From a virus (lineage: Duplodnaviria > Heunggongvirae > Uroviricota > Caudoviricetes), in IMG/VR virus record IMGVR_UViG_2703718851_000004, positions 1-42,238 of that record: DNA of 42,238 nucleotides. One strand, written 5' to 3'. Made by a program: the position numbers and the translations under genes. Below are positions 3,313 through 42,238 of the stretch, one piece after another (the stretch's first letter is position 1; every line of letters starts with the position of its first letter). Below the pieces are notes generated by a model that did not search any database, was not told the origin of the DNA, and worked only from the letters and a program-made list of their open reading frames with translations.

Positions 3313-5472
3313 TTACGTCGAGTAGGTAAATGGCGGCTGCTCCTCCAGTGGAACAACTTTTAACCTATTAAGTGAGTAATATGCAGAGTTTCCGGTAAAG
3401 GTGAGAGTCAACACCCCCGTTGTTGAATTAAAGCTTGCAGATGGTGCTGGTATGGTAGATGTTCCAACTAAGCTTCTGCCTTGATATCCAGTAACGCTGC
3501 AAACATTACCCACCAAAACATTAAATCTTAAATCTTGCTGTAATGTTACAGCCACATTTTTCATTAGAAGCCTGCATGAGTATTCTCCCCCTGCCACACA
3601 ATTGCTTACCTGTATATCGAATGTGTTTGCTCCTTGAGCGATTGAAGGTGAACGCATGGTGTACACATCAAGAAGCCCTTTAAATTGGACTGTATAACCT
3701 CTCAACGGCGCTAAAGTATCAGCTATATTTTCTGTAATTGGATGCTCGCAATTTATTTTGATTCCATAACGCCCGAAGCCAAGATCTTTGGTAATCAATT
3801 TAAATGGTGATCCAATCTTCATGTCGTGAACATTGATCTGTGAGATATCAGTCTTGACTACCGCCCCACTTGACAGTGTGTTTCCAGATTGAACAGCAAA
3901 ATCTTTTATATCATGGTTGCAGAAAACACCGAACGTATTAATAGTTGACCCCACGCACTGACACCAAACTCGGTGACCAGTCTCGCTGGCGGCTACATTT
4001 ACACTCTCACTATAACCTCCGAAAACATTAACGTTACCACTATAAAAGAGGGCGAAATCTCGATTGTACCCCTCCCATGTTACTCCGTGCATATTTATGT
4101 CGACACAGTCGTGGGCATAGAGAAAAGTGGTGACATAGGCAATATTTGGTCTATTTGATACATCTCCGGATCTGTGGAACCATTGTGCCGTGCCTTTATC
4201 CCATGTTTGCGATAAATTACCAGTATAATATCCTCCTACCAAGTTTAGTGCCGTAGTGTGGGGTGTTAAAAATGTTGCATATTTAGCGCCTTGTGCAAAG
4301 CAATTCTCTACCGCAGTCCCCCAAGAACCACTTATCCAAAAGCTAACCTTACAGTCATACACTGCAACTCCAATCAGTTTGGCATCCGGAGTCCTCCAGA
4401 TTCTAATTCCCGCCTGCGTATCTGGACGGCCCAATAAAACAATATTCTCTATATATGGTCCATAATATCCAGCACTCAAATACAGCCCATTTTCCACACT
4501 GTTTGTCACTGTATATCTTGCAGTGCCGTCTGATAGCCATGGAGCGGTATCTAGAAGCAATTTATTTACATCCATGGACGTCATAGCAATAATAATTGAG
4601 CATCCTGCGCGTGAATATCTAAAGCCAGACGTTCCTCCCGTGCCAATTACCCTTACATTTGGAGAGAGATAAATAGTGTCATTAATGAAGTATTGAGCAG
4701 TTGGAAAAACAACATCCCCGCCTTGATGTGAGTCATATGAGGCATCAAGGTAAGGGTTTAGATATGAAATCGCAGCATTGATAGCTGGCGCGCAGTCGAA
4801 GGTACTATCGTTAATTTTTGCCCCAAACTCCAACGGACTCACCGTCCTTGCGACATACGCAGAGGATATCTCTCGCTTCCAGCGTCCTGTTCCAGTATTG
4901 CCAGTTGGGTTAATGGTATAGCCTCCGTCATCAGTATCAGTGCTGGTTGAATTCCAGCGGAAATATCCTCCGCCATAACCAGTTCCAAGGTGATAAGAAT
5001 CAACATAGACTCTTCCATTTTCCTTAACTGATGAGTATGCAGTAAATGCTCGTAGATCTGCTATTGATGAGAATGTACCAAATAATGCATAAGAATCAGG
5101 CGCAGACATCTTGGCAAGCCATTCTGCAGAAAACTGATCCGGGTCATACTTCAGCACATTAGGAAAATAGAACTGCTGCACACCGTATGCATCATAAACA
5201 GCCATCGAATGGCCTTGCACAGTTACGAACTTGGCAATCTGTCCGTTATATACCGGGTAACCAGCAGCGTTAATGATGATTGGTTGCGAAACAGGAACGT
5301 GAGATCCGTCTTCATTCTCTACATAAACCTGAATCTGGTTTTCAGTATTTACCGGGTCAGTGTCAATTTTTCCGATATAAATTTTGCCATTGGCTACGGC
5401 TTTAAAAGAACGAGCCATAGTGAAGAGTTGCGAAGGCATCGATACAATCACATTAGCTGTAATATCTGTCAT
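3313..5472 (-). CDS. Tailspike protein; P22-type N-terminal head-binding domain with divergent receptor-binding domain
   Basis: 719 aa; first ~110 residues match P22 gp9 head-binding domain from memory (MTDITANV...[11 protein letters not shown]...LKYDPDQ); last gene of virion module. Confidence 0.88.
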
Positions 5473-21327: not shown

Positions 21328-21795
21328 TCATCGAAGGCATTGCGTCCTAATGTATTCCTGAAGCGTTCTCAGTGCTGTTTGGTCGCGGATAACTCCGTCC
21401 CGGATATCGAGAACGTTTCGTCCAGCAACTGGAGAGAGTTCGACGGTGGCATCATTGCCCATGCCGGAGGCGCTGGAGGTTTCGGCTGAGGATGGCACAG
21501 GGCATTTTCCTTTGACGAGCACCCTGCCACCATTATCAAGCTTCCGCAGAAGAGCATCATTTTCAGCTTTCGCATCAGCTAACTCCTTCGTGTATTTTGC
21601 ATCGAGCGCAGCAACATCACGCTGACGCATCTGCATGTCAGCGATGGTGGCGTTCGCCTTCTCCAGTTCACTGGCCTTGTTATCGCGCTGCTCTTTGTAG
21701 GCGATTGCGTTATCACGGTAATGATTAACAGCCCATAACAGGCAGACGATGATGCAGATAACCAGAGCGGAGATAATCGCGGTTACTCTGCTCAT
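21328..21795 (-). CDS. Rz: Rz i-spanin
   Basis: N-terminal [21 protein letters not shown] anchor and coiled coil, lambda Rz-like; start overlaps endolysin stop (ATGA). Confidence 0.88.
21369..21575 (-). CDS. Rz1: Rz1 o-spanin lipoprotein embedded in Rz (+1 frame)
   Basis: 68 aa; lipobox MVAGC and proline-rich segment [11 protein letters not shown]. Confidence 0.8.
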
Positions 21796-22295
21796 TGCTG
21801 CCCCCACAAACAGACTTCACGCTCAATCTCACGACGAGTCATGAGACCTTTCCATTGCTTACCGCCAGCATATGTCCAGCGACGTAGCTGATCACATGCG
21901 CCTTTGATATCGCCCTGGTTTATTTTGCGAAGAAGCGTCGATGTTCTGAAATTGCCAGCGCCCACGTTGTAAACGAACGAGTAAAGAGCGCCGCGCGTTG
22001 TTTCCGGTATATCAACTTTTATGTACGGGTTAATTTGTCTGGCGACCGTGGCAAGGTCTTTATTCAGGAGGGCTTTGCATTCTGCTTTGGTATACGTTTT
22101 ACCGAGCATGATGTCTTTTCCTGTATGCCCGTGACATACAGTCCATACACCAACAATATCTTTGTATGGTATGTAGCTGACACCTTCCAGACCATCGTTA
22201 CCACTTGGCCCAGTGATTAACACAGATGCTATAGCAATAGCCCCGCCACTTATCGCCGCTATTACGCTATTTCGTAGTGCCGGTGACATTGCCAT
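21792..22295 (-). CDS. SAR endolysin (lysozyme, phage-21 R-type)
   Basis: 167 aa; Gly/Ala-rich N-terminal signal-anchor-release segment ([13 protein letters not shown]) followed by lysozyme domain. Confidence 0.88.
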
Positions 22296-22714: not shown

Positions 22715-22790
22715 TGGTGCTGGTTAACGGACTTGAACCGCTACCCATTCGCTTACAAGGCGACTGCTCTACCATTGGAGCTAAACCAGC
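22715..22790 (-). tRNA. tRNA-Thr (anticodon UGU)
   Basis: 76-nt cloverleaf: 7-bp acceptor GCTGGTT/AACCAGC, D-stem GCTC/GAGC, anticodon loop CTTGTAA, T-loop TTCAAGT, encoded CCA; one G-A mismatch at top of anticodon stem. Confidence 0.65.
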
Positions 22791-22795
22791 ATGTT

Positions 22796-22869
22796 TGGCG
22801 GGACAGCGTGGACTCGAACCACGATAAGAAGTTAACAGCCTTCCGTAATGACCTTTATACGACTGACCC
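22796..22869 (-). tRNA. tRNA-like element with Asn-type anticodon loop (possibly degenerate)
   Basis: T-arm CGTGG-TTCGAGT-CCACG, encoded CCA, loop CTGTTAA (GUU); but T-T mismatch in acceptor stem, weak anticodon stem and 3-nt variable region. Confidence 0.35.
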
Positions 22870-22925: not shown

Positions 22926-22955
22926 ATTATGGCTAAATGGATAATTGCATGTCAA
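22926..22955 (-). promoter_or_regulatory. Candidate late promoter pR' (Q-utilisation region)
   Basis: Minus strand TTGACA (22950..22955), 18-nt spacer, CATAAT (22926..22931), overlapping the 3' end of the Q-like gene. Confidence 0.45.
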
Positions 22956-23451
22956 GGCCTTTAACAGCAACATGCTTAACTTTCTCAACACGTTTACGCA
23001 TTTTGAAAGCATTTTGCATTGGCTGGTACAAAACAAATAACGACGCTTTCAGGATGTCGTCAATTTCGTTTCTACAGGTTGCCATTGAAGGTTTTCTCCA
23101 TCCCTCGCCACCACGTCCACACATCTTGCGTGGCTTTGCAGTCGCGTGATAGTAGGATGCAATTGCTCGCTTAGATGAACCATGAGCGTAGTAGCTGAGG
23201 AGGATGCCAAAGGCTTTCTTGTCAATGTACATGACGGAATCGACGACCTGAGAAATCAACATTCCATCATCATCATTACACATTGGCCTTGTCATAACTC
23301 TTCCCGGCTCTACGCTCTCCATGAACTTCGCTATTACGCTGCTCATGCGCTTTTCCAGGCGGCCTGAATAAACCCATGCGCCCCACAGTTCAAGCCAGCC
23401 ATTCAGCCACTCATGCTGTTCTTTGGTGAGGTTTAGTTCTCTTATGCCCAC
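22933..23451 (-). CDS. Late-gene antiterminator Q-like protein
   Basis: 172 aa; WGAW and CNDDD motifs resembling P22 gp23-type Q (from memory); position between nin region and lysis cassette. Confidence 0.75.
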
Positions 23452-24113
23452 GCGCCTTCTCCCTGTGCCTGAATCAATGTGAGGTTTCCGCAGAACACTG
23501 CGCCGGTATCGATATACATCTGGTTGGCAAATTTGAGTGGTTTCACTGCTGGCGTATGACCAAAGATGAACGTGTCCGCGCCTTTGATTTCTTTCACGAT
23601 CCCGTCTTGTGAGTTGCTGATTCGTTCGCGGTTCCAGATTACCTGCTGATGATCAACTGGCTTTCCAAACTCGTATTCGTCACAAGGATAATCGGCGTGG
23701 CAGATGACATATTTTTTATCTTTGCTCACCAGTTCGATGATTAACGGAAGTTCATCTGCTTTATGGGCAAGAGCTTTAGCCAGAATTTCTTTGTCGTAAT
23801 CGAGATTAAAGAACCAGCCACCGCCATTAAGCATCCAGTGATTGACGTTTCCGCGCTCTGATAAGCCATCAATCATCATTTGCTCATGGTTTCCACGTAC
23901 AGCTCTGAACCAGGGGAATGTGATTAATTCCAGGCATTCGACGTTCTCTGTACCGCGATCGACCAAATCGCCAACCGAGATAAGCAGGTCTTTTTTGGTG
24001 TCGAATCCTATCGTCTCCAGTTTTTTCATCAGGTTCGTGTAGCATCCGTGCAGATCGCCAACTACCCAAACATTTCGGTATTTGCTGCCATCAATTCTTT
24101 CGTAATAGCGCAT
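23442..24113 (-). CDS. Ser/Thr protein phosphatase (lambda orf221/NinI-like)
   Basis: Metallophosphatase motifs GDLHG, GDLVDRG, GNHE; start at MRYYERIDG with GGAG RBS. Confidence 0.88.
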
Positions 24114-24297
24114 CTCTTTCACTCCATCCGCGATGAACCATGAGAACGTCGTTGACGATGGCGTGCATTTTCCCGTCTTTATCATCAACGTATTTTCTTA
24201 CCGTGCCGCGACTACATTTCAGTCTGCGTGCTACTTCTGTCTGGTTTCCGTATGCTTCAACGAGCATGTCTGGAATGGTTTTTACTGAGAACGTCAT
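24091..24297 (-). CDS. ninH: NinH
   Basis: 68 aa, matches lambda NinH from memory ([27 protein letters not shown]...). Confidence 0.85.
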
Positions 24298-25074: not shown

Positions 25075-25441
25075 TATTGGCGTCCTGCATCATGAGAAAT
25101 ACAATCATGGCGGCGCGGAGTGGGTTATTGTCTATGGTAATAAATTCACAAAATCTATCCGCCTCCCACCAATATTCATTCTTCATTCCAGGATTATTTC
25201 TTTCGTATGCACATATGCTGATCTGATGTTTTGCGATTACAGGCCATGCAGCTCTCGGATCATTGCAGTAGTCAGGTAAAGGGTTTAATGGCTCAAGACT
25301 TGTATCAGCATTTCCGTAATACCATTTATTTGTGTTATTCCCTGATGTTTCAGGCTTACATGCCCAAAGGCCCTTAAAAATTATGTCTCCTACCATTCTG
25401 TTAATTTCAAAATCACTTAACTGTGAATAATCCATTGTCAT
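25067..25441 (-). CDS. Nin-region protein (NinX/DUF-like), AT-rich
   Basis: ORF starting [15 protein letters not shown] with ATGA overlap to ninE stop; family name from memory, low certainty. Confidence 0.55.
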
Positions 25442-25620
25442 TTCCTCGCACGATGTCTTAGCCACCGGATATCCCACAGGTGAGCCGTGTAGTTGAAGGT
25501 TTTTACGTCAGATTCTTTTGGGATTGGCTTGCGTTTATTTCTGGAGCGTTTCGTTGGAAGGTATTTGCAGTTTTCGCAGATGATGTCGGTGAAACCTCGC
25601 CGCTTGCTCTGCTGGTTCAA
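25438..25620 (-). CDS. ninE: NinE-like protein (TTG start)
   Basis: 60 aa; core [15 protein letters not shown]...[21 protein letters not shown] resembles lambda NinE; only start codon available is TTG. Confidence 0.65.
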
Positions 25621-25804
25621 TGGAAATAACCAGGTCTTTGTCGCCTAACTGCCAGATAATTCCCTGCTCTTCTTCGCCCCCTGTCATTGCCTCCACATAA
25701 GCCATAAGGTAATTCATCATGATGTTTATGCCGTCGACTCCTTCGCTTTCTGCATCTTCCATGAGGTCAGAGAAACGCTCGATGTAGTCTTCTTCTGCGC
25801 TCAT
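25535..25804 (-). CDS. NinD-like acidic protein (3' end overlaps ninE by ~86 nt)
   Basis: ORF starting [11 protein letters not shown] with GAGGAA RBS; continues in another frame across the ninE start. Confidence 0.5.
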
Positions 25805-25814
25805 AGCTATTTCC

Positions 25815-26651
25815 TCAGGTTGAACATTCGCAAGGTAATGCGTCGTCATCGGCAAACATGTCTATTTGCAGAGCTCGCTCAGCAACTGCTTGCTTAGCAA
25901 TACTCCAGAATTTTCCAGATGGGACGTGTTCATTTGGCTGAATTCCAAGTCTTTCCATTTCGGCAAATAACCCCTCCCTTTCCTCCAAATAAACTGCGCC
26001 AGTTTCATCCTTGTGAATTGCATATCCGATTTCCTCTTCCGCAGCTTTCGCCTCATTCCAGATGTCTTTACGAAGCACATAAACGCAGTACCAGTGTTGC
26101 CATCCTGCCTTTAAACAGCCAATGCAATTTGCGTGCTTAAATCTCGAATAAGCCATTGGGCGGTTAATGCCAATTTCTTCCGTAGAGTGGATTGTTCTTT
26201 GCGGCCATAGGGCAATCGGATAGTCAGTTTTATAACCTCGTTCAGCCATAACACCCACGCGGCGCTGAACTCGATGCATTTCATTTCTGTCAAATCCGTA
26301 GTAGTAGATATTTTCCTTTTGGCTATCATTACGCTCCAGCCACAGATCAAACGGTCCTGTCTTAAGCCTGTTGGTGCATAGAATTTGACCTGATCCAACT
26401 TTCCATGCCCTCGCGTCAAGGCAAACAGATATTGGAGTAGCGTCTTTCCACCTTTCATGGTTGGCATACGTAACATCTATCCCTAAATAACTTGATATCT
26501 CATCCTTAAATCTCTTGATGTCCTCGTCTTCTACTGTGCTACTGATGTCGTGGTTAAGCAGGATGACATTTTCTCTTCCATATTTTCTGACCACCTCTAT
26601 CGCGACAATTGCCGAGGAGTGGCCTCCGCTATACAAAACTACGTGCTTCAT
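25815..26651 (-). CDS. NinC-like PP-loop/PAPS-reductase family protein
   Basis: N-terminal PP-loop motif VLYSGGHSS; ATGA overlap with upstream ORF. Confidence 0.7.
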   Translation of the reverse strand: MKHVVLYSGGHSSAIVAIEVVRKYGRENVILLNHDISSTVEDEDIKRFKDEISSYLGIDVTYANHERWKDATPISVCLDARAWKVGSGQILCTNRLKTGPFDLWLERNDSQKENIYYYGFDRNEMHRVQRRVGVMAERGYKTDYPIALWPQRTIHSTEEIGINRPMAYSRFKHANCIGCLKAGWQHWYCVYVLRKDIWNEAKAAEEEIGYAIHKDETGAVYLEEREGLFAEMERLGIQPNEHVPSGKFWSIAKQAVAERALQIDMFADDDALPCECST

Positions 26652-26848
26652 GCCCATACCCTCTGTTGATACTTACTCCTACCCTTTGGCTCGCTGGCGT
26701 ATTCTGGAAGCAACGCGGAAACCACCCATAACCGAGGGTCTGCGCTTAGCGTTCGTTGAGTTTTTACGTTGCGGGATTGGTAGGCGGTGATTAACTGAGT
26801 TGCTTCTTCGTTGGTGAGGTCGTGATGGTGAAACCATGTGAGCTTCAA
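26648..26848 (-). CDS. Hypothetical 66-aa protein (TTG start, translationally coupled to Dam)
   Basis: Strong GGAGG 6 nt upstream of TTG; start overlaps Dam stop, stop overlaps ninC-like start. Confidence 0.4.
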   Translation of the reverse strand: MKLTWFHHHDLTNEEATQLITAYQSRNVKTQRTLSADPRLWVVSALLPEYASEPKGRSKYQQRVWA

Positions 26849-27384
26849 TCGTACCTCCTGTCAGTGAACCTGACGCTCTGACCGATAGCCATCAATGCCG
26901 CTTTGGATACGGTAGTAAACATCCGTCGAGGACTGATGAACGGTCGCCAAATCAGCAGCATGGAGCCTTTGCTGTTTCCCTTCTTCTCCAACCCTGTCGA
27001 TGGTTCGATAAAATTAATCCGTCCATCAGTGATAATGCGAACTTCGTCGACACTCTCCAGAGCCTTGCTGAACCATCCGACTGACATATCCTCTGGCACA
27101 AGCATAACTACCGTCTGTCGCTGTTGTATGCACTGCTCAGCGGCTTTTTCCACCCACGGCCTGATATTGCTGTACGGTGGGTTATTCCAGATTGCACCGT
27201 GGCTTACCCACTCAGAATTGAGCGCGTCGTCGGCCTCAGTTAGCCAGTGAGCACACAGAGCATTTTTGTCGCTCGCTGCCGAATCCAGCCAGAATCCAAA
27301 CTCAATATCCAGTGCATCAAAAAGCCAAAGCGGCGTTTGCCAGCAGTCCTTGTCGTGTGCTGGCGTATTTGATTTGATAGTCAT
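26845..27384 (-). CDS. Phage DNA N6-adenine methyltransferase (Dam family)
   Basis: Catalytic NPPY motif (WNNPPYS) and sequence typical of phage Dam; start overlaps ninB stop (ATGA). Confidence 0.85.
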   Translation of the reverse strand: MTIKSNTPAHDKDCWQTPLWLFDALDIEFGFWLDSAASDKNALCAHWLTEADDALNSEWVSHGAIWNNPPYSNIRPWVEKAAEQCIQQRQTVVMLVPEDMSVGWFSKALESVDEVRIITDGRINFIEPSTGLEKKGNSKGSMLLIWRPFISPRRMFTTVSKAALMAIGQSVRFTDRRYD

Positions 27385-27821
27385 GCAGCCCGATCTCCCC
27401 ATCTCGCTTTCCACTCCAGAGCCAGTCTCGCTTCGTCTGACCACTTAACGCCACGCTCTGTACCGAATGCCTGTATAAGCTCTAATAGCTCCGCAAATTC
27501 GCCTACACGCATCCTGCTGGTTGACTGGCCTATTACCACAAAGCCATTCCCGGCAAGGTTAGGAACAACATCCTGCTGCTTTAATGCTGCGGTAAACACA
27601 CACTTCCAGCTTTCTGCATCCAGCCAGCGACCATGCCATTCAACCTGACGAGAGACGTCACCTAAGCAGGCCCATAGCTTCCTGTTTTGGTCTAAGCTGC
27701 GGTTGCGTTCCTGAATGGTTACTACGATTGGTTTGGTTGGGTCTGGAAGGATTTGCTGTACTGCGTGAATAGCGTTTTGCTGATGTGCTGGAGATCGAAT
27801 TTCAAAGGTTAGTTTTTTCAT
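27381..27821 (-). CDS. ninB: NinB (Orf) recombination mediator
   Basis: 146 aa from MKKLTFEIRSPAHQQNAIHAV..., matches lambda NinB from memory; GGGAGAGGG RBS. Confidence 0.88.
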   Translation of the reverse strand: MKKLTFEIRSPAHQQNAIHAVQQILPDPTKPIVVTIQERNRSLDQNRKLWACLGDVSRQVEWHGRWLDAESWKCVFTAALKQQDVVPNLAGNGFVVIGQSTSRMRVGEFAELLELIQAFGTERGVKWSDEARLALEWKARWGDRAA

Positions 27822-27840
27822 GACTTCCCTCTCCCCCAAA

Positions 27841-27869
27841 TAAAAAGGCCTGCGATTACCAGCAGGCCT
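27841..27869 (-). terminator. Intrinsic terminator between replication genes and nin region (tR2-like)
   Basis: Stem AGGCCTGC/GCAGGCCT with 8-nt loop, followed on minus strand by TTTTTATTT. Confidence 0.7.
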
Positions 27870-27898
27870 GTTATTAGCTCAGTAATGTAGATGGTCAT

Positions 27899-29779
27899 TT
27901 AATACTCCGTCACGTTTTCCTGTCGCCACGCCTCGTCATATTCCGATTTCGGCATATTGGCGATGTAGCTATATGGCGATCCTGATTCAAGTTGCAGGAA
28001 CTGGTGCGATTGCTCGTCAAGGAACAACGGGACACCACCTTCCCAACCTTCGCCGTTACGTTGTTTTTCAAGCATCAAAACAGATGCCGGAGATGCCAGT
28101 AGCTGTTCGTCCTTCTCTGACATCTTTTCACCACTCTGAACTCTCTGTAACGCTCTCTCGCGAGCCTTGTTACGCCAGATGATGAAAAGGTTGTCTGTCA
28201 GGTCTGTTATCGCTCCAGAGCCTTTTACGTCCATTTTCCCGGTTGGTTTTTCTTCGCTGTCTCCTTTTCGCGAGTGAGTAACGAGAATGACGTGGGAGTT
28301 TGTTTTGTTTTTGAAGTCGCAAATCGAGTCAACAAACGCCTTCTGCCCGTTATAGTCATCGTCGCCTATGCCACATTTCATCAGGCTGTCGATGATGAAT
28401 AACTGGATCCCGTATCGGCGGCGAGCGTAGTCGAATATTTCGATCAGCCTGTCGGCTTTCGCCGTTCCGGTCAGACCAAACACCCAAAGTCTTTCGTCAT
28501 AAAATTTAAATGCAGAGTCAATTTCCAGCACTGGCGGCATCTTGCAGCACGTCGCCTGACGGGTAAGGCGCTTAAGGAGAATACCAGGCTTCAGCTCAAG
28601 TGACGCGATGCACGTCTTCACACCCTGACGCATTGCCTCAAGTGCCATATGCCCGACAACCTCCGTTTTTCCGTGACCGTTCACACCATTGACCAGCGTC
28701 AACTCTGCCTCACGGAACTGGAATTTATCTGCCAGAGATTCCCACGGTGGATTAAACAGATACTGCTGCTTGCCGTAGAAAGCGTTGATAGTGTCCTGGT
28801 AAAACTCTCGCGCACTGTAGAGTTCTTCAGGATCGAAGTAGGATGCCGTGCCGATGTACTGCCAGATTTCATCCTCGGTAACACCGTTCATCAGGCATTC
28901 GTTGATGTCTTTGTACGGCAGAGTAACAAGACGGCAACGATGTTCACCGAGTCGGCTTGCGATTTCCCTTGCGGCTTCACGACCAACATCATCAACGTCC
29001 ATCGAGATGAATATTTCCTCAAACCTGTCGAGGTTGTGGTACTCAAACTCAATCCACTGTTGCTTAGCGCCTTTCCCTCCACCAAACGGCACGGATAACG
29101 CCGAGATGCCGTATTGCGCATAGCTCATACAATCAATTTCGCCTTCGCAAAGCACAACCGCCCTCACGCCAGCGTCCAGAGCCTGCCATCCGAACAGACA
29201 AGGTTCGCAATCACCTTCTGCCATAATGACTTTCTTCCCGTCCGGGCGCTCAGTGCTGATTCGCTTGACCTGCAACAACTCACCATCGCGTTTGTACGGA
29301 AGCACCAGTGCATCAAGTTCTCGTTCTCCCTTCCACACCTTGCCGCTGACAACCTCGTAGCGCTTTACGACTTCTGGCGATATGCCACGCGATTGCAGGT
29401 ACTCAAGATGGGATTCTGTTCTGGTAACGTAGCGGGCGATTTTCTTGCGGTCAGGTCTGGAGAATTTCTTCTCACGTTTGGCATCGAAATGGTGATCGTC
29501 ATCCTTGATTCCGAGAAAGGCTTTCGCTTCCTGCATAGCCTGATGCAGGTTAATTCCACGACATGCCATCCACAAATCAAGCATGTCACCGCCGTCTCCC
29601 TCAGCGAAATCAGCCCATTTTTTCTTGCCGCTAAGGTTGACCTTAAGGCTGTTTCCCTTGTCACCGTTGACGTTACCGGCAACCCACTCATGCCCCTCTT
29701 TCTTGCCGTTTGGCAACAGGTGCGGAGCCACCCTGTCAACCTGCGCCCAAAGCAGGTCGCTAAGTTCACTTGGCGTCAT
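27899..29779 (-). CDS. Bifunctional DNA primase/helicase (TOPRIM primase domain + DnaB-like helicase domain)
   Basis: 626 aa; acidic TOPRIM-like region and Walker A GVNGHGKT in C-terminal half. Confidence 0.8.
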   Translation of the reverse strand: MTPSELSDLLWAQVDRVAPHLLPNGKKEGHEWVAGNVNGDKGNSLKVNLSGKKKWADFAEGDGGDMLDLWMACRGINLHQAMQEAKAFLGIKDDDHHFDAKREKKFSRPDRKKIARYVTRTESHLEYLQSRGISPEVVKRYEVVSGKVWKGERELDALVLPYKRDGELLQVKRISTERPDGKKVIMAEGDCEPCLFGWQALDAGVRAVVLCEGEIDCMSYAQYGISALSVPFGGGKGAKQQWIEFEYHNLDRFEEIFISMDVDDVGREAAREIASRLGEHRCRLVTLPYKDINECLMNGVTEDEIWQYIGTASYFDPEELYSAREFYQDTINAFYGKQQYLFNPPWESLADKFQFREAELTLVNGVNGHGKTEVVGHMALEAMRQGVKTCIASLELKPGILLKRLTRQATCCKMPPVLEIDSAFKFYDERLWVFGLTGTAKADRLIEIFDYARRRYGIQLFIIDSLMKCGIGDDDYNGQKAFVDSICDFKNKTNSHVILVTHSRKGDSEEKPTGKMDVKGSGAITDLTDNLFIIWRNKARERALQRVQSGEKMSEKDEQLLASPASVLMLEKQRNGEGWEGGVPLFLDEQSHQFLQLESGSPYSYIANMPKSEYDEAWRQENVTEY

Positions 29780-39772: not shown

Positions 39773-40820
39773 GCGCCGGGATTTACCCCCTAACCTTTAT
39801 ATAAGAAACAATGGATATTACTGCTACAGGGACCCAAGGACTGGTAAAGAGTTCGGATTAGGCAGAGACAGGAGGATAGCAATTACTGAAGCAATACAGG
39901 CAAACATTGAGTTATTTTCAGGACACAAACACAAGCCTCTGACAGCGAGAATCAACAGTGATAATTCTGTTACGTTACATTCATGGCTTGATCGCTACGA
40001 AAAAATCCTCGCCAGCAGAGGAATCAAGCAGAAGACACTCATAAATTACATGAGCAAAATTAAAGCAATAAGGAGGTGCCTGCCTGATGCTCCACTTGAA
40101 GACATCACCACAAAAGAAATTGCGGCAATGCTCAATGGATACATAGACGAGGGCAAGGCGGCGTCAGCCAAGTTAATCAGATCAACACTGAGCGATGCAT
40201 TCCGAGAGGCAATAGCTGAAGGCCATATAACAACAAACCCGGTCGCTGCCACTCGCGCAGCAAAATCAGAGGTAAGGAGATCAAGACTTACAGCTGACGA
40301 ATACCTGAAAATTTATCAAGCAGCAGAATCATCACCATGTTGGCTCAGACTTGCAATGGAACTGGCTGTTGTTACCGGGCAGCGAGTTGGTGATTTATGC
40401 GAAATGAAGTGGTCTGATATCGTAGATGGATATCTTTATGTCGAGCAAAGCAAAACAGGCGTAAAAATTGCCATCCCTACAACATTGCATGTTGATGCTC
40501 TCGGGATATCAATGAAGGAAACACTTGATAAATGCAAAGAGATTCTTGGCGGAGAAACCATAATTGCATCTACTCGTCGTGAACCGCTTTCATCCGGCAC
40601 AGTATCAAGGTATTTTATGCGCGCACGAAAAGCATCAGGTCTTTCCTTCGAAGGGGATCCGCCAACCTTTCACGAGTTGCGCAGTTTGTCTGCAAGACTC
40701 TATGAGAAGCAGATAAGCGATAAGTTTGCTCAACATCTTCTCGGGCATAAGTCGGACACCATGGCATCACAGTATCGTGATGACAGAGGCAGGGAGTGGG
40801 ACAAAATTGAAATCAAATAA
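39750..40820 (+). CDS. int: Tyrosine integrase Int
   Basis: 356 aa, near-identical to lambda Int from memory (MGRRRSHERRDLPPNLYIRNNGYYCYRDPRTGKEF...). Confidence 0.97.
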   Translation: MGRRRSHERRDLPPNLYIRNNGYYCYRDPRTGKEFGLGRDRRIAITEAIQANIELFSGHKHKPLTARINSDNSVTLHSWLDRYEKILASRGIKQKTLINYMSKIKAIRRCLPDAPLEDITTKEIAAMLNGYIDEGKAASAKLIRSTLSDAFREAIAEGHITTNPVAATRAAKSEVRRSRLTADEYLKIYQAAESSPCWLRLAMELAVVTGQRVGDLCEMKWSDIVDGYLYVEQSKTGVKIAIPTTLHVDALGISMKETLDKCKEILGGETIIASTRREPLSSGTVSRYFMRARKASGLSFEGDPPTFHELRSLSARLYEKQISDKFAQHLLGHKSDTMASQYRDDRGREWDKIEIK

Positions 40821-40893
40821 TGATTTTATTTTGACTGATAGTGACCTGTTCGTTGCAACAAATTGATAAGCAATGCTTTTTTATAATGCCAAC

Positions 40894-40908
40894 TTAGTAT
40901 AAAAAAGC
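40894..40908. repeat. attL: att core repeat at int-proximal junction (attL-type)
   Basis: TTAGTATAAAAAAGC; phage side 40821..40893 matches the lambda P' arm from memory; identical core at 91..105. Confidence 0.9.
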
Positions 40909-40954
40909 AGGCTTCAACGGATTCATTTTTCTATTTCATAGCCCGGAGCAACCT

Positions 40955-42238
40955 GTGAACACATTTTCAGTTTCCCGTCTGGCGCTGGCATTGGCTTTTG
41001 GCGTGACGCTGACCGCCTGTAGCTCAACCCCGCCCGATCAACGTCCTTCTGATCAAACCGCGCCTGGTACCTCTTCTCGCCCGATTCTGTCGGCAAAAGA
41101 AGCGCAGAATTTCGATGCTCAACACTATTTTGCATCCCTGACACCAGGTGCTGCAGCGTGGAATCCTTCCCCGATTACCCTGCCTGCGCAACCTGACTTT
41201 GTTGTCGGCCCGGCGGGCACTCAAGGTGTAACGCATACCACGATTCAGGCGGCGGTAGATGCGGCAATTATCAAGCGTACCAACAAGCGCCAGTATATTG
41301 CCGTGATGCCTGGTGAGTATCAGGGAACGGTATATGTCCCTGCCGCTCCGGGTGGAATTACTCTGTACGGTACAGGTGAAAAACCGATTGATGTGAAGAT
41401 TGGGCTTTCCCTTGATGGTGGCATGAGCCCTGCCGACTGGCGTCACGACGTCAACCCGCGCGGCAAATATATGCCAGGTAAACCAGCGTGGTATATGTAC
41501 GATAGCTGCCAGAGCAAACGCAGCGACAGTATCGGTGTTCTCTGCTCTGCGGTCTTCTGGTCACAAAACAATGGCCTGCAACTGCAAAATCTGACCATCG
41601 AAAACACGCTGGGCGATAGCGTAGATGCAGGTAACCATCCGGCGGTGGCACTGCGTACTGATGGTGACCAGGTACAGATTAACAACGTTAACATTCTCGG
41701 TCGTCAGAACACCTTCTTTGTCACCAACAGCGGTGTGCAGAACCGTCTGGAAACGAATCGTCAGCCGCGTACGCTGGTGACCAACAGCTACATTGAAGGG
41801 GATGTGGATATCGTTTCTGGTCGCGGCGCAGTGGTGTTCGATAACACCGAATTCCGCGTGGTGAACTCACGTACTCAGCAAGAAGCGTATGTGTTTGCAC
41901 CGGCTACGCTGTCCAACATTTACTACGGTTTCCTCGCCGTAAACAGCCGTTTCAATGCTTTCGGTGATGGTGTGGCGCAACTGGGCCGCTCGCTGGATGT
42001 TGATGCCAATACCAACGGTCAGGTGGTGATCCGTGATAGCGCCATCAACGAAGGTTTTAACACGGCTAAACCGTGGGCCGATGCGGTGATCTCTAATCGT
42101 CCGTTTGCGGGTAATACCGGCAGCGTAGATGATAACGACGAAATACAGCGCAATCTGAATGACACTAACTACAACCGCATGTGGGAATACAATAACCGCG
42201 GCGTGGGTAGTAAAGTGGTTGCAGAGGCGAAGAAGTAA
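40955..42238 (+). CDS. ybhC: Host YbhC-type outer-membrane lipoprotein (pectinesterase-fold family), GTG start
   Basis: 427 aa; signal peptide with lipobox LTAC; GGAG RBS; lies beyond the att core, so chromosomal. Confidence 0.88.
   Translation: MNTFSVSRLALALAFGVTLTACSSTPPDQRPSDQTAPGTSSRPILSAKEAQNFDAQHYFASLTPGAAAWNPSPITLPAQPDFVVGPAGTQGVTHTTIQAAVDAAIIKRTNKRQYIAVMPGEYQGTVYVPAAPGGITLYGTGEKPIDVKIGLSLDGGMSPADWRHDVNPRGKYMPGKPAWYMYDSCQSKRSDSIGVLCSAVFWSQNNGLQLQNLTIENTLGDSVDAGNHPAVALRTDGDQVQINNVNILGRQNTFFVTNSGVQNRLETNRQPRTLVTNSYIEGDVDIVSGRGAVVFDNTEFRVVNSRTQQEAYVFAPATLSNIYYGFLAVNSRFNAFGDGVAQLGRSLDVDANTNGQVVIRDSAINEGFNTAKPWADAVISNRPFAGNTGSVDDNDEIQRNLNDTNYNRMWEYNNRGVGSKVVAEAKK

Follow-up and report, generated by a model that had tools for sequence, protein, structure and literature searches.

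The locus described here lies in a 42,238-nucleotide (nt) stretch of DNA from a virus of the Caudoviricetes (IMG/VR record IMGVR_UViG_2703718851_000004), referred to throughout as the window. In it, a gene for a Dam-family adenine methyltransferase (dam) and a 66-codon open reading frame (ORF), designated orf66, are found between the nin-region gene ninB and a gene for a PP-loop protein. All positions are window coordinates, and the genes under discussion all lie on the minus strand. The lambda/434 allele of ninB (27381..27821; PF05772, E=2e-54; phrog_72) encodes the Orf recombination mediator, which has 146 amino acids, as it does in the gene call of an identical locus (L111). Next come dam (26845..27384), with an ATG start and a predicted 179-residue N6-adenine DNA methyltransferase as its product (PF05869/TIGR01712), and orf66 (26648..26848), which has a TTG start and a conserved, predicted protein product of phrog_1212. 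The PP-loop/PAPS-reductase-superfamily gene (25815..26651; phrog_424, E=4e-28) follows and encodes 278 amino acids including the motif SGGHSS. A first-pass annotation, made from the sequence alone, had reported overlapping stop and start codons across all four genes, and each overlap is present: the ninB stop and dam start share ATGA (27381-27384), the dam stop and orf66 start share TTGA (26845-26848), and the orf66 stop shares ATGA with the ATG of the PP-loop gene at 26651. A second in-frame ATG of that gene, at 26657, offers an alternative start with a 10-nt overlap and a product of 280 amino acids. Overlaps of the ATGA type are also described as typical of the nin region in PMC8022706. Equally in agreement with the first-pass annotation, the TTG of orf66 is preceded, 5 nt upstream, by a strong Shine-Dalgarno sequence, AGGAGG (26854..26859), and in lambda, ninC comes straight after ninB and overlaps it by 4 nt.

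The origin of the junction between dam and orf66 can be read from two blocks of similarity. Positions 26869-27898, which span ninB and dam, are 98% identical to phage 434, and ninB plus dam DNA is matched at this level up to 26869 in HK140, mEp043 and Sf101 as well. Unlike the window, these phages proceed straight from dam to ninE, and lack the extra 1.3-kilobase module composed of orf66, the PP-loop gene and a further small ORF (orf89). Positions 25400-26890 are instead 99.5% identical to phage Huey (PQ850609), and an IMG/VR contig (L022) shares with Huey and the window the linker ahead of orf66, the TTG, orf66, the PP-loop gene and orf89. In Huey, dam is absent, and orf66, the PP-loop gene and orf89 come immediately after a divergent 136-residue ninB allele. 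The two blocks overlap by 22 nt (26869..26890, minus strand; GGCTATCGGTCAGAGCGTCAGG on that strand), a patch of imperfect similarity defined by blastn end points and a three-way alignment. Within the patch, the 3′ end of dam (encoding ...AIGQGVR) resembles the 3′ end of the Huey-type ninB (encoding ...AIGQGVRFTDGRYD and stop). Past the patch the window sequence is of the Huey type, so Dam has gained a new tail, FTDRRYD and stop, together with an AGGAGG-TACGA-TTG linker. These last seven codons (26845-26868, minus strand; 3845-3890 of the Huey locus, L001) derive from the Huey-type ninB tail, and the linker natively joins orf66 to Huey-type ninB; the same linker and TTG follow ninB elsewhere. 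Judged from these alignments, the adjacency of dam and orf66 arose when a ninB-dam segment of the 434/VT2 type crossed over, within the 22-nt patch, with a Huey-type segment consisting of the ninB tail, orf66, the PP-loop gene and orf89. The first-pass annotation had treated dam and orf66 as a joint insertion; they were not inserted as a unit but are parts of two modules fused at 26869-26890. Note that 434-type Dam ends in ...RRAA and lambda-type NinB in ...DRAA; it seems that gene ends here have been swapped repeatedly together with the ribosome-binding site of the next gene.

None of the matches in the complete E. coli genomes and phage records searched covers the joint. An exact-protein look-up nonetheless turned up three contigs with an identical 851-nt joint (two in draft assemblies at NCBI, the third in a Logan assembly of a read set). 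At least three public assemblies thus hold it, and the idea that the joint is unique to the window was rejected. The three contigs carry three different replication modules, and one draft assembly, GCA_001576135.1 (LOPG01000005.1), is 100% identical to the window across 5,849 nt. The arrangement is ordinary nin-region mosaicism, present base for base in public assemblies and already known. The Logan contig (ERR12083824; L108, 1-1950) encodes a Toprim primase of more than 968 amino acids with a weak LAGLIDADG_3 match, which suggests an intein or homing-endonuclease insertion.

Dam was assigned to its family by the first-pass annotation from an NPPY motif, and profile searches bear this out. Motif IV, (D/N)PP(Y/F/W), is intact as NPPY at residues 67-70, within IWNNPPYSN. 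The protein matches Pfam PF05869 with E=5e-65 and 218.6 bits (cut-off 28.1) over profile positions 1-168 of 169, and it scores 265.8 bits (cut-off 97.05) against the NCBIfam equivalog TIGR01712 (phage_N6A_met); the family is that of the T1/HP1/VT-2 Dam group. Residues 1-172 are identical at 171 of 172 positions to Dam of the Stx2 phage VT2-Sakai (M.EcoVT2Dam, NP_050531), and the protein is 98% identical to phage 434 Dam. A GTG start at 27444, which would yield a 199-residue Dam, was rejected because homologues and gene callers start at the ATG at 27384. A sequence search for solved structures of the Dam family found none. Orphan status, also part of the first-pass annotation, agrees with the gene content: no cognate restriction endonuclease gene lies beside dam, the neighbors being ninB, orf66, the PP-loop gene, orf89 and ninE (the genes to which the endonuclease search was limited), and the best PADLOC matches of Dam are orphan-methyltransferase models.

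M.EcoVT2Dam is described in PMC6602927 as a GATC-specific orphan enzyme. The original reports of the cloning of the VT-2 and HP1 enzymes are referenced in PMC7556043, and Radlinska & Bujnicki 2001 is cited in both PMC7556043 and PMC6602927. The window enzyme resembles M.EcoVT2Dam in family (PF05869/TIGR01712), in position directly after ninB, in its ATGA overlap and in being an orphan. It differs in length (179 versus 175 residues for M.EcoVT2Dam), in its tail (...GQSVRFTDRRYD and stop in the window versus ...GQGVRRAA and stop, the latter being read from the 434 alignment since VT2-Sakai aligns just to residue 172), and in the gene that follows (orf66 in the window, ninE in VT2-Sakai). Sequence identity at this level indicates that the methyltransferase is an already characterized enzyme and not a new one, and G6mATC methylation by the window allele is predicted from near-identical M.EcoVT2Dam. 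The gene is also common. Approximately 1,560 of 5,426 complete E. coli genomes contain the dam portion of a 301-nt probe, and 1,892 phage records have a Dam homologue. The order ninB-dam-ninE, with 4-nt overlaps, is seen in the annotated records of 434 and VT2-Sakai, and annotations under the matches indicate it in Sf101, mEp043, HK140 and others. It is a common lambdoid arrangement, and the window dam is a known enzyme in its usual place. As a separate observation, GATC is strongly under-represented in the whole window (96 sites versus 197 expected under a maximal-order Markov model, an observed-to-expected ratio of 0.49), and CTAG, with a ratio of 0.32, is the one 4-bp palindrome that falls lower. 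This scarcity is found in a phage that carries its own GATC methyltransferase gene.

Several lines of evidence bear on whether orf66 is a gene at all. Its product matches phrog_1212 with E=1.8e-26, residues 1-65 aligning to profile positions 1-65 of 66. The median pairwise ratio of nonsynonymous to synonymous substitution rates (dN/dS) is 0.18 in the orf66 frame but 1.4 and 1.9 in the two alternative frames, and purifying selection is thus confined to its own frame. At 100 homologous loci, alignment places ATG at the residue-1 codon in 71, TTG in 6 and GTG in 4 (81 start codons in total), and most of the remaining loci begin orf66 one codon upstream. The linker TTCACTGACAGGAGGTACGA and the TTG are conserved in six loci, including some whose orf66 alleles are just 67% identical. 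Finally, in an exact-product look-up (24 contigs read, 10 places shown; the index lists the product in 70 blocks), gene callers give the exact 66-residue product in all 10 of the places shown. The alternative is that the frame is spurious, its TTG and Shine-Dalgarno sequence being fortuitous and the DNA an untranslated spacer or the site of a 52-residue ORF with an ATG start (26679-26837). The short length of orf66, its non-ATG start and the lack of a Pfam or NCBIfam family would all fit such a view, and the annotators of phage Huey picked the alternative ATG. Their choice is accounted for by a 1-nt deletion in Huey orf66 (L001, 3649-3848; AATCACGCCTAC versus AATCACCGCCTAC in the window), because of which the annotated CDS0049 (62 amino acids) is a hybrid that joins the +1 frame from the ATG to the true C-terminal 45 residues; the 52-residue ORF was rejected. 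The Huey deletion is either a genuine frameshift or a sequencing error. Full-length homologues of constant length are found across the Enterobacterales, with a start codon kept at the aligned position and selection acting in the orf66 frame. We therefore consider a spurious frame hardly credible. Neither dam nor orf66 is a chance ORF, because both have profile matches and orf66 is under in-frame purifying selection. The small ORF that the first-pass annotation had left without an assigned function is, by these comparisons, a genuine protein-coding gene, probably translationally coupled, that belongs to phrog_1212, a family of unknown function.

That annotation had further presented orf66 as a partner of the methyltransferase, and here the wider record disagrees. 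Neighborhoods of orf66 were dereplicated to 53 distinct contexts. Upstream, NinB, NinB-like or DUF1367 proteins are encoded in 19, NinD in 5, PF05869 Dam in 3 and MT-A70 in 1, with various small ORFs otherwise; downstream, NinX is found in 11, NinG in 11, orf106 in 7, YdfU (DUF968/HNH) in 5, a PP-loop protein in 3 and a C5-methyltransferase (PF00145) in 3, with HNH, RusA and others also represented. Additional look-ups yielded contexts of the form NinB-orf66-small ORF and a single MT-A70-x-orf66-NinG context. The usual place of orf66 is directly after ninB or a DUF1367 gene, and its neighbors vary widely. If Dam and orf66 were a functional pair, with the small protein modulating, targeting or regulating Dam or serving as an anti-restriction partner, one could point to PF05869 Dam upstream of orf66 in the window, in L011/L039 and in L042, to MT-A70 upstream in L043, and to PF00145 C5-methyltransferases downstream in L025, L041 and L045 (approximately 4190-5100) and in Erwinia phage vB_EhrS_59 (L122, 2501-3756, Dcm-type). 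However, no methyltransferase adjoins orf66 in 45 of the 53 contexts, among them the abundant Gifsy (DUF1367-orf66-NinG) and Qin (orf-YdfU) types, and VT2-Sakai, 434, Sf101 and hundreds of further genomes carry this same Dam with no orf66. The methyltransferases concerned belong to families that are unrelated to one another, some encoded upstream of orf66 and some downstream, and the joint in the window is a recombination scar within a ninB tail. We regard a functional pair as very unlikely. Much the same low expectation attaches to a broader proposal, that the phrog_1212 protein is a portable accessory of phage DNA-modification enzymes, one that modulates minimal methyltransferases (those without a target-recognition domain) or helps set their specificity, or else an anti-defense protein traveling with methyltransferase cassettes. 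If true, such a role would explain the presence of orf66 beside three unrelated methyltransferase families (PF05869, MT-A70 and C5) in about eight independent lineages. A different possibility is that orf66 encodes an accessory or regulatory subunit of one of its recombination and DNA-processing neighbors, which include NinB, DUF1367, NinG, YdfU, HNH, RusA and the PP-loop protein. The 19 of 53 contexts with a NinB-type or DUF1367 gene upstream are consistent with this, as are the frequent downstream nucleases, joined by 4-nt overlaps, and the PP-loop gene that comes next to the window allele in every place shown. No single neighbor is conserved, though, and nin regions are made largely of such genes, so adjacency tells little; the PP-loop link is seen just among near-identical sequences and reflects recent common descent. 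A subunit role of this kind seems unlikely. The reading we favor, with a probability of roughly 85%, is that the region is an ordinary mosaic nin stretch of a P22-like (HK620/Sf6/Sf101-type) E. coli prophage, in which two unrelated cassettes favor the same slot after ninB. Three points weigh against it. The GATC specificity of M.EcoVT2Dam is taken from secondary literature. The C-terminal seven residues of the window Dam differ from those of M.EcoVT2Dam, although they fall outside the Pfam/TIGRFAM domain. Lastly, 8 of the 11 distinct orf66 loci that have a methyltransferase within 4 kilobases have it adjacent, and three methyltransferase families are involved, which leaves some room for a functional link. 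We read this last figure as the preference of both cassettes for the post-ninB slot, since a shared slot inflates adjacency.

The orf66 family is widespread among phages and prophages of Escherichia, Salmonella (Gifsy-1 and Gifsy-2), Klebsiella, Enterobacter, Citrobacter, Erwinia, Pantoea, Edwardsiella and Hafnia. It forms 369 clusters at 90% identity. An exhaustive profile search of 1.84 billion representatives returned just 113 clusters at 50% identity, nearly all of approximately 66 residues, and the family is therefore compact. Homologues are 66-68 residues long, apart from the Qin type (90-92 residues). All of the conserved residues of phrog_1212 (W5, F6, H8, T12, A16, Y23, R26, L34, D37, W41, L47, P48 and W65) are present in the window protein, which has no catalytic signature. 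The protein is predicted to be a small, basic domain of beta-alpha-beta-beta topology whose C-terminal tail is disordered and terminates in a conserved QQ(R/K)xW motif; its AlphaFold2 (AF2) model has a mean predicted local distance difference test (pLDDT) score of 77. Scans against Pfam, NCBIfam and PADLOC gave no family; the orf66 profile found nothing better than E=0.03 among PDB sequences, with no stretch passing alone; and Foldseek gave no match in BFVD at E<=1e-3. In literature on nin-region small proteins and ydfU, nothing was found about the family. Fusions of family members to other domains (the P0150 Rep-O N-terminus, P0024 HTH, P0176 and others) look like deletion or recombination chimeras and were not used. 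The label “toxin to Rem” carried by a homologue in phage vB_EcoS-640R1 was rejected: there is no toxin or antitoxin match in Pfam, NCBIfam or PADLOC, and tblastn on the K-12 Qin region matches just an unannotated ORF beside ydfU, not rem. The label appears to stem from positional annotation transfer.

The closest points of comparison for orf66 outside its own module are Gifsy-2 STM1021.1n and the 92-residue Qin ORF, both of phrog_1212, which are 48% and 37% identical, respectively, over 66 residues, lie in nin regions and tightly abut the next gene. They differ from the window in their neighbors, which are DUF1367 and NinG in Gifsy-2 and YdfU (DUF968/HNH) in Qin, neither with a methyltransferase, and proteins of the Qin type are extended by 26 residues at the N terminus relative to orf66. 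In E. coli K-12 MG1655, the Qin relative is an intact ORF with an ATG start (L004, 3307-3585, minus strand, corresponding to NC_000913.3, 1644306-1644584, minus strand). It lies in the gap between rem and ydfU and stops 1 nt ahead of the annotated ydfU start. It has no RefSeq feature, and the same protein is called hypothetical in hundreds of other E. coli genomes (P0027, for example). The DUF1367 gene (PF07105; L003, 2393-2995, and L122, 866-1315) is the commonest upstream neighbor of orf66 in Gifsy-type prophages, and the authors of Erwinia phage 59 annotated its DUF1367 protein as NinB-like from HHpred. Should that label be true, the modal position of orf66 would be directly after a NinB-type gene. 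Note also that two lambdoid nin loci were found in oddly labeled assemblies, one attributed to Chryseobacterium sp. (L011, CACSKA010000001.1; order Dam-orf66-NinX) and one to a metagenome-assembled genome of Veillonella parvula (L018, JAGZPX010000007.1; Qin-like orf-ydfU). Both orders are typically enterobacterial, and the placement of these loci in a Bacteroidota isolate and a Veillonella bin is likely due to contamination or mis-binning.

The PP-loop gene downstream of orf66 had been called ninC in the first-pass annotation. A PP-loop gene does follow, and its product belongs to phrog_424, the same PHROG as lambda NinC, with similar size and position. The name is loose, however: the two proteins are 22% identical (pairwise E=5e-5), and the window protein has no match to PF01507 at E<=0.01, whereas lambda NinC matches that family with E=7e-9. 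From these searches the gene encodes a NinC-type PP-loop protein that is a distant relative and not a close NinC/PF01507 member. It also gives a weak match (E=5.7e-8 over 200 residues) to the PADLOC model for SspD, a PAPS-reductase-like protein of Ssp phosphorothioation. For the exact orf66 allele, the 278-residue PP-loop gene is next in 10 of the 10 places shown and therefore shows the module to which orf66 belongs in this lineage.

Beyond the PP-loop gene lies orf89 (25535..25804; phrog_38761), a small ORF of the Huey-type module that is called as 89 amino acids in an identical locus and would be 106 amino acids if begun at an upstream TTG at 25855. It is followed by ninE (25438-25620) and then by a NinX-like gene, ninF and ninG. 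Two ORFs (22933-24188) lie just downstream of ninG, and two tRNA genes, tRNA-Thr(TGT) and tRNA-Asn(GTT), are set between these and the next ORFs (21328-22295), at 22715-22869 on the minus strand. On the other side of the locus, the first gene in minus-strand order encodes a Toprim primase/helicase (27899-29779). Between it and ninB is a strong hairpin resembling an intrinsic terminator (27846..27869), with a stem of 8 base pairs, of which 6 are G-C, followed by TTTTATTT. A terminator annotated directly upstream of ninB in phage 434 (tR2 in lambda) occupies the same site. Positions 27381-27898 are 99.6% identical to lambda 40567-41084.

Lambdoid nin genes lie downstream of tR2 and undergo delayed-early expression after N antitermination. 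We propose that dam would be read in this way, as a delayed-early gene transcribed from pR once N antitermination carries polymerase past the tR2-like terminator before ninB, with its translation coupled to that of ninB through the ATGA overlap. The phage Dam would methylate the adenine of GATC, as reported for the near-identical enzyme, and would act on fast-replicating phage DNA as well as host DNA, supplementing or replacing host Dam. Progeny DNA would then be fully G6mATC-modified regardless of the capacity or status of host Dam, and such DNA would be expected to be protected from GATC restriction enzymes that are methylation-sensitive (MboI/DpnII type). Virion DNA of lambda and P22 is reported to be undermethylated (PMC8022706). 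Ribosomes that end at the dam TGA may reinitiate at the overlapping TTG of orf66, aided by the AGGAGG 5 nt upstream. Dam itself would need no orf66. As for the orf66 product, we consider it most likely, with low confidence, to be a non-catalytic protein whose role in phage DNA metabolism is to bind nucleic acid or another protein.

The finding adds little as a discovery, the methyltransferase being a textbook Dam of lambdoid and Stx phages. The locus is a clean case of lambdoid mosaic formation, in which recombination at a 22-nt patch inside overlapping gene ends has swapped the C-terminal tail of an enzyme. It also points to a widespread, clearly selected and wholly uncharacterized family of 66-residue proteins, with hundreds of clusters in Enterobacterales prophages. 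The family has an intact copy in K-12 Qin that is unannotated in RefSeq, and it would be a cheap target for functional work.

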